From: an uncultured Phycisphaerales bacterium
GTDB taxonomy: Bacteria; Planctomycetota; Phycisphaerae; Tepidisphaerales; Tepidisphaeraceae
Direction: 5' to 3'
Length of the DNA stretch: 64,000 bases
NCBI GenBank assembly: GCA_963758525.1
Contig: CAVWVQ010000003.1
Location: 896,001-960,000 of the forward strand
This document shows positions 19,521 through 31,157 of this stretch, one piece after another (position 1 is the first letter of the stretch; every line of letters starts with the position of its first letter). Both the position numbers and the translations under genes were made by a program. The notes below the pieces were generated by a model. That model was not told where the DNA came from. It did no database searches and saw only the letters and a list, made by a program, of their open reading frames with translations.

Positions 19521-19886
19521 TCACGCCGCATCTTCGGCGGACTCATCACGGAATTCGTCACGTTTGCCCAACGATTCTGAGATCGGACTTTCCAGCGCTT
19601 CTTGTTCCGCGCTGCCCGACGGCATCTGGACCGACGGCTCATGCGGCTGAGCTTGCTTCTTCCGTCCGGCGGACTTCTTGCCGCCAATTCGCCCGATCTG
19701 CGACATGTGACCGCGGTTGGCACTGACGGCTTCGCCGCCCTTGCGCCCTGCGGCTCTCGCTTCGTCGGCTGTGAACTGATGCGCAGTCCCTTTCTGATGC
19801 GCTGCTTTCCCCCCTTTGCGGGCAATTTCCTTCTGTCGGGTGCGATCCATCGCAGCAAAACCGCGATTTTTTGGGTTTGACTCCAT
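19521..19886 (-). CDS. KGG-repeat general stress protein
   Basis: RGFAAMD...QKEIARKGG...AHQFTADEARAAGRKGG...HMSQIGRIGG. Confidence 0.88.
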   Translation of the reverse strand: MESNPKNRGFAAMDRTRQKEIARKGGKAAHQKGTAHQFTADEARAAGRKGGEAVSANRGHMSQIGRIGGKKSAGRKKQAQPHEPSVQMPSGSAEQEALESPISESLGKRDEFRDESAEDAA

Positions 19887-20173
19887 CCGCGCTGCTCCTT
19901 TTCGCAAATAATTCTTTGGCAGCTTGCCAAATAAGACATTCGAGTAACGACGATGGCAGGCTCGTTGCAACGGGGATACCAACGGAGCGTCTTCTGCATT
20001 ATTTGGTGTTTATTGCACGTCTGGATTATCGGAGCTTGGATTTTTCGCAAGCTCGATCAGTTGGCAACAATTCTGGTTGGCCCTAAAGTAATGTGTCTAT
20101 CTTGATATAATCGTCCACGGGCAGTGATGGGCGCGCCGGCCCCGCATTTCGCCGTGATGGGAGTGAACTTCCG

Positions 20174-23041: not shown

Positions 23042-23094
23042 ACGCCGGCAGGCCTCCTCCATCCACGCACCCTTTGTTCCGAAAGAATTTCCCG

Positions 23095-24362
<1,268 letters not shown>

Positions 24363-24703: not shown

Positions 24704-24731
24704 TTGTAAACGTCACATTAACGCCTATAAT
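24704..24731 (+). promoter_or_regulatory. Sigma70-type promoter for the ncRNA/uORF/rny unit
   Basis: TTGTAA (24704-24709), 16 nt, TATAAT (24726-24731). Confidence 0.65.
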
Positions 24732-24737
24732 CGGTTG

Positions 24738-24903
24738 ACGTTGAAGCGATTGCGTTCTCCCTAAGGAAAATGGAACCGCTTCAAACCCGCCGGCGTTCGC
24801 GGATCGCTGGCGGTGTGCAGGCCTCGATGTAATCGCTGCGGATCATGGGTTTTTGAACGCTTCTCCAACGGGAAGCAAGCCGCCGCGATTTCGATACGAA
24901 CGT
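24738..24903 (+). ncRNA. ssrS: Candidate 6S RNA
   Basis: Starts ~7 nt after TATAAT. Nested complementarity ACGTT/AACGT, TTGAA/TTCGA, TTGC..TTC.CCC/GGGAAGCAA, TTCAAA-CCC/GGG-TTTTTGAA gives a ~165-nt rod with a central bubble; lies upstream of rny. Confidence 0.6.
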
Positions 24904-24925
24904 GGTTTTCCCGGAGTACCCTACC

Positions 24926-25189
24926 GTGCAAACAGCAATCATGGGAATCTTCAATAGCCTGGCGCTGCTGACGATTGCCCTTCTGCTGCGGGCAGGATTG
25001 ATCGCCGTTCGGCGCTTCGCCGGACGAACAACGCTGACGGTTCCCGTCCGCGTCGCAGCGAGCCATTCCTGCCATCGCGCACGGGTCCGGCCGACGGCAT
25101 TCGACGCCGACGGCCTCTCGTTGCGGGCTCCGCCCACACTCCCGGCGCAACGGCGCCGCGTCAATCCCGGGATCCCCGGGCCAAGCTGA
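24926..25189 (+). CDS. Small uORF with N-terminal hydrophobic segment and RAPP motif (candidate ribosome-arrest peptide)
   Basis: GGAG 24913-24916, GTG 24926; MQTAIMGIFNSLALLTIALLLRAGLIAVRRF...GLSLRAPPTLP...; RAPP codons at 25124-25135. Confidence 0.55.
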   Translation: MQTAIMGIFNSLALLTIALLLRAGLIAVRRFAGRTTLTVPVRVAASHSCHRARVRPTAFDADGLSLRAPPTLPAQRRRVNPGIPGPS

Positions 25190-25333
25190 CGAGAGTGACG
25201 CGGGCGCATTCGGCGCACCGTGCGTTCGATCACATCCAGACGTCCCTGCCTGTTGTCATCCGCGCGAACGATGCGAACGGCCCTGCCGTTGGCAATGACG
25301 TGTTGGAGCGCCGTCAAGACGGCGGGAGCGCAC

Positions 25334-26893
25334 ATGTTCGGATATCTCGTCGGCGGAATTCTCATTGGCTTGATCATCGGCGGCGGCGGCCTGTTCGCGC
25401 TGCTGCAACTCTCCGGCCGCAACTACATGGCGCAGGCTCGCGCCGATGCCGAGAAGCTTCGGCAAAACGTCGCGGCCGAGGCACAAAACCGCGCCAAGGA
25501 AATTGAGCTGTCGGCCCAGCAGGATCTGCTCAAGCGCAAGGAACTGTTCGAGCGCGAAAATGACGCCGCCCGGCGCAAGCTTGAAGAACACGATAACCGG
25601 CTCTCCAAACGCGAAGACACACTCGACCGCAAGCTCGACACCCTCGGCGTGAAAGAGCATCAACTTGAAGATCTGGAGAAAAAGCTCATCCAGCGCGACA
25701 AGTCGATGGCGGGGAAGGAAGAGCAGCTCACCGCTGTGTTGCGCGAGCAGCGCGACCGCCTGCTGCAGCTCACCGGCATGTCCCCCGAAGCGGCAAAGGA
25801 AATGCTGCTTCGGCGCATCGAAGATGAATGCAAACAGGAAGCCGGGGGCGTGATCCAGCGCATCACCGAGCAGGCCCAGGAGCAGGCCAAGGAAAAGAGC
25901 CGGATGATCGTGCTCCAGGCGATTCAGCGCTACGCCGCCGAGCAGACCAGCGATCACACCGTCAGCACGGTGGTGATCCCCAGCGACGACATGAAGGGCC
26001 GCGTCATCGGCCGCGAGGGCCGCAACATCCGCAGCTTCGAAAAAGCGACCGGTGTTGACGTCATCATCGACGACACCCCGGGAATGGTCGTCGTCAGTTG
26101 CTTCGATCCGGTCCGCCGGGAGATTGCCCGCATGTCTCTCGAACGGCTCGTGCAGGATGGCCGGATTCACCCGGCCCGCATCGAGGAAATTGTCGTCGCC
26201 ACCAGCAAGGAAATGGACGAAGAGCTGCTCAAGATCGGACGCGAAGCCGTTCAGGAGGCAAACCTGCCCGGCATCGCAAAGCCGATCATTCCCATGCTCG
26301 GCCGGCTCGGATTCCGCACCAGCTACGGGCAAAACGTTTTGCGCCACTCGATGGAAGTCGCGTATCTCGCACAGGTGATGGCCGACGAACTCGGACTCGA
26401 CGGCGCGCTCGCCCGCCGATGCGGCCTGCTCCACGACATTGGCAAGGCAATGGACCACGAAGTGGAAGGCGGCCACCCGCAAATCGGCATGGAATTCCTC
26501 CGCAAGTTCAACGAGAGCGAAGCAGTGCTGAATGCCGCCCTCGCCCACCATGGCGACGTTCCCGCGACAACTCCCTATACGCCCCTGATCATGGCCGCCG
26601 ACGCCATCAGCGCCAGCCGTCCCGGCGCTCGGCGCGAGAGCCTCGAACGGTACGTCACGCGTCTGCGCGAGTTGGAGGATCTCGCCACAAGCTTCGAAGG
26701 CGTCCGCCAGGCGTATGCGATCCAAGCCGGCCGCGAAGTGCGCGTGATCGTTGACGCGAAGCTCGTGGATGACAAGATCAGCGCCAAGCTCGCGCGTGAC
26801 ATCGCCAAGCGCATCGAGACGGAGATGACCTATCCTGGGGAAGTGAAGGTAACCGTGATGCGCGAGGTGCGGACGGTGGAGTATGCGCGGTAA
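25334..26893 (+). CDS. rny: Ribonuclease Y
   Basis: N-terminal TM, coiled coil, KH ([14 protein letters not shown]), HD (LLHDIGKA), [23 protein letters not shown]. Confidence 0.97.
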
Positions 26894-29674: not shown

Positions 29675-31041
29675 AGTCAGGAGTCAGGAGTCAGGAGTCG
29701 GAAGTCAGTGTCCCGAGTTAAAGGATCCAGTTCATAACCCATTCGCGTCTCCCGAATCTGCTCTTGCTTCTCCCTTCTGACTTCTGGCTCCTTGCTTCTG
29801 ACTCCTTTAATCTGGGAGTCAGGAGCCAGGAGTCAGGAGCCAGGGGTCAGTGTCCCGAGTTAAAGGATCCAGTTCATAACCCATTCGCGTCTCCCGAATC
29901 TGCTCTTGCTTCTCCCTTCTGACTTCTGGCTCCTTGCTTCTGACTCCTTTAATCTGGGAGTCAGGAGCCAGGAGCCAGTGTCCCGAGTTAAAGGATCCAG
30001 TTCATAACCCATTCGCGTCTCCCGAATCTGCTCTTGCCTCTCCCTTCTGACTTCTGGCTCCTTGCTTCTGACTCCTTCCCCGATTCCCCTTCTGACTTCT
30101 GGCTCCTTGCTTCTGACTCCTTCCCCGATTCCCCTTCTGACTTCTGGCTCCTTGCTTCTGACTCCTTCCCCGATTCCCCTTCTGACTCCTGGCTCCTTGC
30201 TTCTGACTCCTTCCCCGATTCCCCTTCTGACTTCTGGCTCCTTGCTTCTGACTCCTTCCCTGATTCCCCTTCTGACTTCTGGCTTCTTGCTTCTGACTCC
30301 TTCCCTGATTCCCCTTCTGACTTCTGGCTCCTTGCTTCTGACTCCTTCCCCGATTCCCCTTCTGACTTCTGGCTCCTTGCTTCTGACTCCTTCCCCGATT
30401 CCCCTTCTGACTTCTGGCTCCTTGCTTCTGACTCCTTCCCCGATCTCCCTTCTGACTTCTGGCTCCTTGCTTCTGACTCCTTCCCCGATTCTCCTTCTGA
30501 CTTCTGGCTCCTTGCTTCTGACTCCTTTAATCTGGGAGTCAGGAGCCAGGAGTCAGGAGCCAGTGGCTCCTTGCTTCTGACTCCTTCCCCGATTCCCCTT
30601 CTGACTTCTGGCTCCTTGCTTCTGACTCCTTCCCCGATTCCCCTTCTGACTTCTGGCTCCTTGCTTCTGACTCCTTCCCTGATTCCCCTTCTGACTTCTG
30701 GCTCCTTGCTTCTGACTCCTTCCCCGATCTCCCTTCTGACTTCTGGCTCCTTGCTTCTGACTCCTTCCCTGATCTCCCTTCTGACTTCTGGCTCCTTGCT
30801 TCTGACTCCTTCCCCGATTCCCCTTCTGACTTCTGGCTCCTTGCTTCTGACTCCTTCCCCGATTCCCCTTCTGACTTCTGGCTCCTTGCTACTGGCTCCT
30901 TCCCTGATTCCCCTTCTGACTTCTGGCTCCTTGCTTCTGACTCCTTCCCTGATTCCCCTTCTGACTTCTGGCTCCTTGCTTCTGACTCCTTCCCCGATTC
31001 CCCTTCTGACTTCTGGCTCCTTGCTTCTGACTCCTTCCCTG
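29675..31041. repeat. Higher-order tandem array: three ~130-140-bp units, then 11+11 copies of a 45-bp unit
   Basis: Unit CCTTCTGACTTCTGGCTCCTTGCTTCTGACTCCTTCCCCGATTCC, interrupted at ~30527-30563 by TAATCTGGGAGTCAGGAGCCAGG. The longer unit's TCCCGAGTTAAAGGATCC recurs at 29711, 29853 and 29981. No unique spacers. Confidence 0.95.
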
Positions 31042-31157
31042 AACCACTTCGTGCCTTCTTTCACCCACTTTTTTTGCCGACATTTGTGGAGTTCTTTGTT
31101 CACTGGAACAGGAGCACGTGCGTAAAATAAGCCGGTCGCCATCTTAAGGAGCCTTGC

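Follow-up and report, generated by a model that had tools for sequence, protein, structure and literature searches.

What does a short reading frame with a predicted membrane helix and an RAPP motif do directly upstream of rny, the gene for the mRNA-decay endonuclease RNase Y? The arrangement lies in a window of 64,000 nucleotides (the whole stretch of DNA analyzed; GCA_963758525.1, contig CAVWVQ010000003.1, positions 896,001 to 960,000) from an uncultured Phycisphaerales bacterium. A preliminary description of this DNA had suggested that the upstream open reading frame (uORF) encodes an arrest peptide, on which membrane-insertion-sensitive stalling would unmask rny's Shine-Dalgarno (SD) sequence. 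Comparison across genomes argues that the peptide is real and conserved, which would make RNase Y a new target gene for a RAPP-type leader peptide. The genes and signals of the locus are listed here in window coordinates.

24704..24731, + strand: sigma-70-type promoter, TTGTAA-16-TATAAT, 10/12 matches (0.4 expected)
24898..24916, + strand: uORF start region, with family-conserved AACGTGG (GTG 24902) and GGAG at 24913-24916
24926..25189, + strand: uORF, 87 aa, from GTG 24926 to a TGA ending at 25189; no Pfam family at E ≤ 1
24938..25009, + strand: predicted single membrane helix, N-out/C-in from flanking charges
25124..25135, + strand: RAPP arrest-type motif, 17 codons ahead of the stop (LRAPP, 25121-25135)
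25321..25329, + strand: rny SD region
25334..26893, + strand: rny, RNase Y, 519 aa, with N-terminal membrane anchor, RNase_Y_N, KH and HD domains

All the parts that the preliminary description had named, namely the 87-residue frame with its SD, hydrophobic helix, RR, spacer, LRAPP and 144-nt gap, are present in the sequence as stated. The hydrophobic stretch has a KD17 of 2.44 and is followed by RR at residues 29-30 and then by a spacer of 35 residues, and the rny ATG at 25334 stands 144 nt past the uORF stop. A longer form of 95 aa would begin at the in-frame GTG 24902; an exact-sequence lookup in the protein collection found neither of the two window peptide forms. The start conserved in the family is the GTG equivalent to 24902, often with an ATG two codons earlier, and GGAG at 24913-24916 is the SD for GTG 24926. 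Because both genus mates of the window genome have GCG in place of GTG 24902, the start at 24926 with its GGAG SD is the likelier one in this genus. In two pairs of loci (L041 and L203, L001 and L019), GGAG changes frame, yet compensating one-base changes around it leave the upstream start position in frame with the uORF, which shows that GGAG is conserved at the RNA level.

Boxes resembling the window promoter are also found in the leader alignments of the family. We infer that transcription starts near 24737, giving rny a leader of about 600 nt ahead of its ATG; given the promoter at 24704-24731, a single transcript probably spans leader, uORF and gene. Rfam covariance models gave no match at E ≤ 10 between 24360 and 25400, and the Rfam library thus rules out 6S RNA or a known riboswitch as the identity of the leader. 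At several of the loci L024-L030, from other Phycisphaerae families, a promoter-like site seems by eye to be followed by an rny leader of 600-700 nt, with no helix and RAPP uORF.

Elsewhere in the window, sucB (2-oxoglutarate dehydrogenase E2, 23052-24362) is split over at least three frame changes, and RNase E/G is also in two frames. These breaks are probably assembly indels, so single-base details of the window genome need care. Long tandem repeats on both strands at 29770-31125 give rise to repeat ORFs and spurious miRNA-like hairpin matches. A small ORF at 19521-19982 (- strand), between purF-like and sucA-like genes, carries repeats that we take to be of the KGG type.

Conservation of the uORF and selection on its peptide

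The family set comprised 141 genomes, and the family name (Tepidisphaeraceae/Tepidisphaerales) was taken from the titles of relatives. The rny gene was identified at E ≤ 1e-100 in 128 genomes and the upstream DNA was examined for 121; G058, G098, G108, G114, G123, G140 and G150 were left out of the count, and two more had less than 600 nt upstream, giving 119. A locus was scored as positive when a helix with KD17 ≥ 1.6 stood 30-60 aa before RAPP or RGPP and no more than 450 nt from rny. The arrest-peptide proposal implied that relatives would carry such a uORF, and they do: it precedes rny in 83/119 family genomes and 51/71 genera, with RAPP in 76 of the positive loci and RGPP in 7. Among 75 rny loci of other Planctomycetota (some perhaps from one genome), none had a helix and RAPP-like uORF, and a hydrophobic short ORF of any kind occurred in two. 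One positive locus, L010 (G004), comes from an unpublished genome, and the conclusions are independent of it. Related genomes are not independent of each other; genus-thinned tests were applied where stated.

Half of the 36 family loci without R[AG]PP retain a helix uORF with an altered motif (RDPP in 6, RASP in 4, RSPP in 2 and six single others), and RDPP, RASP or RSPP thus stands at the equivalent place in 12/36. The other 18 (18/119 in this search) show no uORF; one of them seems to be a frameshifted copy, and genus g82 contributes all four of its loci. RDPP takes the place of RGPP in L150, L172, L174, L183, L187 and L188, which belong to four genera, three of them also with RGPP members.

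A profile built from 31 uORFs gave 129 matches among 1.84 billion proteins, 117 with R[AG]PP and 6 with RDPP as judged from protein sequences alone. A sequence-only model of the leader gave strong matches only ahead of family rny genes, in 8/18 family genomes; weak matches, at E 1.6e-4 or higher, fell in 12 other genomes and off the locus in one family genome, and the window's own genome held one match. By these searches the element is single-copy and rny-specific. The uORF stays with rny while the gene neighbors vary, with 39 clusters among 46 upstream genes and 40 among 45 downstream genes. The preliminary description had cautioned that R, A and P codons are common by chance in high-GC DNA, and a genome-wide check indicated that the arrangement exceeds chance. 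Of 235 R[AG]PP occurrences outside called genes in the window's genome, two follow a helix at a distance of 30-60 aa and have a gene within 450 nt, namely the window locus and a marginal one with KD 1.71. The same screen with seven control motifs gave 0-3 of 150-978.

The codons of the motif indicate what is being kept. Across the 83 loci, Arg is written with all six of its codons, and Ala, Gly and Pro with all four each, and Ala and Gly replace one another. Within the RAPP codons, 16 within-genus pairs differ by 18 synonymous and 2 non-synonymous changes, a pN/pS of 0.06 (uncorrected) compared with 0.63-0.83 elsewhere in the uORF and 0.49 in the rny N-terminus. Given the six Arg codons and this difference in pN/pS within the uORF, what is maintained is the motif and not a folded protein. 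Furthermore, a start anchor defined by nucleotide pattern and blind to frame was in frame with the Arg, and open up to it, in 49/52 loci (four mis-anchored loci were removed and the window was anchored by hand). The peptide is under protein-level selection. Codon usage within the motif is biased, with GCT for Ala in 44/83 loci and CCC for the last Pro in 52/83.

Net positive charge precedes the helix in 0/49 loci and follows it in 40/49, which predicts an N-out/C-in orientation, and this charge pattern matches that of RNase Y's own membrane anchor. The distance from helix end to Arg is 33-57 aa, with a median of 43 and a 10th-90th percentile range of 39-48, where the filter allowed 30-60, and the tail after the motif is mostly 15-19 aa. 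This predicted topology and spacer fit a membrane-insertion monitor.

Predicted RNA pairings around the uORF

How a stall in the uORF might reach rny depends on the RNA between them, in which the following elements were recognized.

24787..24813, + strand: hairpin whose loop holds the conserved GCGGAT (24799-24804); unpaired at 0.54-0.78 for loop bases and at 0.1-0.2 for the stem
24798..24835, + strand: 5' leader arm, GCGGAT..GCAGG..GATGT/ATCG; predicted partner, the intergenic arm
25218..25264, + strand: intergenic arm; predicted partners, the leader arm and, as an alternative, the ribosome-binding site of rny
25218-25225, + strand: GTGCGTTC, part of the intergenic arm; pairs with the rny start in the window's local fold
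25227-25236, + strand: CGATCACATC, part of the intergenic arm
25243-25250, + strand: pyrimidine anti-SD TCCCTGCC, part of the intergenic arm
25258-25263, + strand: conserved ATCCGC, part of the intergenic arm

The preliminary description had pointed to complementarity between the Ala-Pro-Pro codons and the rny SD (GCTCCGCC / GGCGGGAGC), which is present in the window as described, and had proposed that this pairing masks the SD until a stalled ribosome unmasks it. Local folds do not bear this out. The pairing has a probability above 0.5 in just 4/83 loci; the window is at 0.02, whereas its two genus mates reach 0.8 and 0.9. Mean accessibility of the rny SD was 0.13, compared with 0.14 with a stall mask, and rose by more than 0.2 in 3/83 local folds. 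The pairing was rejected as a general mechanism from these folds and from a cross-genome test, at p=0.048. The usual partner of the rny SD lies downstream of the uORF stop, about 85-130 nt beyond RAPP, where a stalled ribosome would not reach it. The insertion-monitor idea thus keeps its conserved and selected helix and RAPP, its N-out topology and its spacer, and loses the SecM-style unmasking of the SD (4/83).

In the cross-genome test, each element was paired with the partner from its own genome and with the partners from other genomes, using one locus per genus. The leader arm, whose family consensus is GCGGAT..AGG..TTTGACGT, paired with its own intergenic arm at -23.9 kcal/mol and with others at -17.2 (39 genera, p<1e-4). 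The uORF start region paired with its own RAPP codons at -15.7 and with others at -14.0 (33 genera, p=0.0004; two controls p=0.89 and 0.76). The anti-SD and the rny SD gave p=0.001-0.006. Four controls of the test were null and one reached p=0.007; consequently, only the leader:intergenic and start:RAPP results are firm, and that for anti-SD and SD is weak. In alignments, leader GCGGAT and intergenic ATCCGC are both found in 63/119 loci, and the base adjoining them is Watson-Crick in 38/63, compared with 23.2 ± 3.1 after shuffling (not genus-thinned). GCGGAT is predicted to be enclosed in a hairpin loop in 73/83 loci. ATCCGC was considered as an exposed toehold and rejected, as it is not predicted to be exposed.

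The predicted helices nest around the uORF, with the start:RAPP helix inside the leader:intergenic duplex. On the intergenic arm, the partners of the leader and of the SD overlap by at least 4 nt in 57/62 loci, and in 58/71 the rny SD is less accessible than when the upstream sequence is shuffled. In the window the leader:intergenic duplex was computed at -41 kcal/mol, and the equilibrium fold of the window does not form it. Among 49 whole-leader folds the long duplex forms with at least 4 pairs in 36, and it is anticorrelated with the anti-SD:SD helix (r=-0.43). A stall mask lowered the leader duplex in 10 of these folds and raised it in 3, with no net effect on rny start accessibility at equilibrium (0.327 and 0.325); accessibility also differs little with and without the leader duplex, at 0.33 and 0.30. 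RNAalifold found no consensus structure in the family leaders, probably owing to varying hairpin lengths, and pair counts from a MAFFT alignment were marginal (21/500 and 13/500 shuffles). No helix joining the leader to the region of the uORF stop emerged from a search in which 1 of 156 window pairs had z<-3, that pair being the leader:intergenic duplex itself. Taken as models, these pairings suggest that the leader probably carries a long-range RNA switch; equilibrium folds reproduced no switch.

A proposed insertion checkpoint and its alternatives

The reading that we prefer, at a probability of roughly 0.4, is that the ribosome on a membrane-anchored RAPP peptide remains stalled until the peptide's helix is inserted, and that the peptide gates RNase Y via the long-range leader fold. 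That the uORF stalls its ribosome is very probable by analogy with the RAPP arrest mechanism (PMC10951233), and the element quite probably controls rny. Release of the arrest by membrane insertion is somewhat favored, and the direction, with release turning rny on, is close to an even choice. However, RAPP-like sequences tested in other proteins mostly gave no arrest (PMC10987492).

By extension from ApdA/ApdP, the ribosome would stall with RAP in the P site and with the helix, about 43 residues back, just out of the tunnel. Insertion of the N-out helix, a proxy for RNase Y's own N-out anchor, would then pull the ribosome free. In the off state, the stalled ribosome would bar start:RAPP pairing and hold the two ends of the mRNA apart, leaving the intergenic anti-SD to mask the rny ribosome-binding site. 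Upon release, the uORF start would pair with the RAPP codons, the loop would close and the leader arm would take up the anti-SD, such that rny would be translated on an mRNA already at the membrane. A membrane-anchored nuclease would in this way be produced only where insertion works. Release-on was chosen because the start:RAPP helix needs an absent ribosome and nests in the duplex that captures the anti-SD, and because the stall mask leans the same way. In its boldest form, which is tentative, an arrest peptide mimicking the anchor of its target would act as a checkpoint on insertion for the principal endonuclease of mRNA decay, with the peptide's coding sequence as the loop of a nested RNA switch of about 450 nt. 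If true, RNase Y would be made only from transcripts whose leader peptide was pulled into the membrane, the arrest peptide would license expression upon release rather than upon stalling, and membrane biogenesis would be directly linked to global RNA turnover.

The same parts could operate with the opposite sign, the stalled ribosome keeping rny on and release shutting it off. This is the main rival because the precedents all act that way: for SecM, MifM, VemP, uDF_RQH and CruR, the downstream gene is on during stalling, opposite to release-on (PMC10987492, PMC9426467). The stalled ribosome would cover the C-rich RAPP region, which would be either a Rho loading site or an anti-SD directed at the uORF's own start, with decay triggered when those two pair. 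CruR likewise combines a long intergenic gap (162 nt) with use of Rho (PMC9426467), the window genome has a rho gene, and remote anti-SD-like sequences can pair with a ribosome-binding site and promote decay (PMC12697547). C exceeds G around and past RAPP (skew 0.19-0.34), although this skew comes mostly from Pro and Ala codons and is mild past the stop. In the nested geometry, moreover, anti-SD capture shares a fold with the start:RAPP helix, which is ribosome-free, and the effect of the stall mask tends in the opposite direction (10 loci to 3). We regard stalling as the on state as unlikely. It is distinctly improbable that the element serves autoregulation with no insertion monitor, the stalled and anchored chain tethering rny mRNA beside membrane-bound RNase Y, which would cut the leader. 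B. subtilis RNase Y does control its own mRNA through 5' UTR cuts (PMC10303841), membrane attachment affects its choice of substrate (PMC11313650), and a single-copy, rny-specific element would suit such a loop. But autoregulation has no need for an exchanged anti-SD or a narrow spacer, and the B. subtilis route uses RNase J1, whereas RNase_J_C was not found in the window genome (91% complete).

A CsrA input is very improbable as the main signal. Here the RAPP peptide would report ribosome traffic, and thus the global translation state instead of insertion, while CsrA on the GGA of the hairpin loop (and on the start GGAG) would block the long-range pair. GCGGAT is invariant and loop-exposed, neither of which pairing alone would require, GGA in hairpin loops is a typical CsrA site (PMC13443453), and the gene is present in 140/141 family genomes. 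It is, however, equally present in genomes that lack the element, and CsrA leaves the helix, the charge asymmetry and the spacer unexplained. Finally, rny could be outside the control of the uORF, which would then be an independent small membrane protein or carry RAPP as a side effect of an RNA helix. The codon bias (Ala GCT 44/83, last Pro CCC 52/83) is what RNA pairing predicts, but the use of six Arg codons, a pN/pS of 0.06 at RAPP against 0.63-0.83 elsewhere in the ORF, and the constant position ahead of rny although neighbors vary (39 clusters among 46 upstream genes) make this highly implausible.

Relation to known arrest peptides

The rny uORF resembles ApdA, ApdP, ApcA and the RQH family in being a small uORF with an N-terminal membrane or export signal, a spacer of more than 30 aa and a C-terminal RAPP or RGPP, with RASP and RSPP variants and otherwise little sequence conservation (PMC10987492, PMC10951233). 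It differs from them in the downstream gene, which is rny here and secA, secDF or yidC there, and in the occurrence of RDPP (6 loci, 4 genera), which the main text of PMC10987492 does not mention. About 80 natural alleles, including RGPP, RDPP, RASP and RSPP, thus provide a panel for learning which variants stall. A further difference is that the anti-SD lies past the uORF stop and not beneath the stalled ribosome. This would be a case of control at a distance, in which an anti-SD past the stalled ribosome apparently alternates between two partners, the leader and the rny start. The arrest motif of MifM, the B. subtilis YidC monitor, reportedly differs from RAPP. MifM and the rny uORF both have one N-out/C-in helix and a spacer that is short and narrow, the mark of type I, YidC-monitoring peptides; the MifM median is 54 as measured in PMC10987492, and that of the rny uORF is 43 from helix end to Arg. 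MifM induces yidC2 via a local stem-loop (PMC10987492), whereas here a nuclease would be the target, through a predicted fold of about 450 nt.

Targets outside protein export have precedents. CruR of Bordetella pertussis (DUF2946) is likewise a RAPP uORF with a non-export target and a long intergenic gap (PMC9426467), and other RAPP/RGPP uORFs precede non-Sec genes (PMC12992588). Unlike CruR, the rny uORFs have CXXC in 1/83, and no Pfam match (DUF2946) was found at E ≤ 1. Neither the text nor the searchable supplements of PMC12992588 mention RNase Y, rny or ribonuclease; its figure panels of downstream genes could still show rny. Post-transcriptional control on the rny leader, predicted here, has a parallel in B. 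subtilis, for which the abstract of PMC10303841 reports that RNase Y and J1 make the cuts and mentions neither a uORF nor an arrest peptide. The literature searched, in which coverage of subscription papers was incomplete, links no arrest peptide to rny, in agreement with the preliminary description, which knew of no such pairing.

In the window's own genome, a short ORF ahead of secA (contig C3, 175642, + strand) has a signal-peptide-like start and ends in ...FRLPPPTL-stop. It resembles the Planctomycetota arrest peptide uA_LPPP (PMC10987492) and may thus be a separate Sec monitor. At yidC (C3, ~4218700, + strand) there is no uORF, and a long metallophosphoesterase-like ORF ends right at the yidC start.

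Sec and YidC monitors have a sec or yidC gene directly downstream, and the gene downstream here is rny. By analogy, then, the rny uORF would work like a monitoring arrest peptide, yet its gene context places it outside the Sec/YidC-linked group. The targets of known RAPP arrest peptides are protein-export, metal-uptake and redox genes; a RAPP peptide ahead of RNase Y would join nascent-chain sensing to the initiator of bulk mRNA decay.
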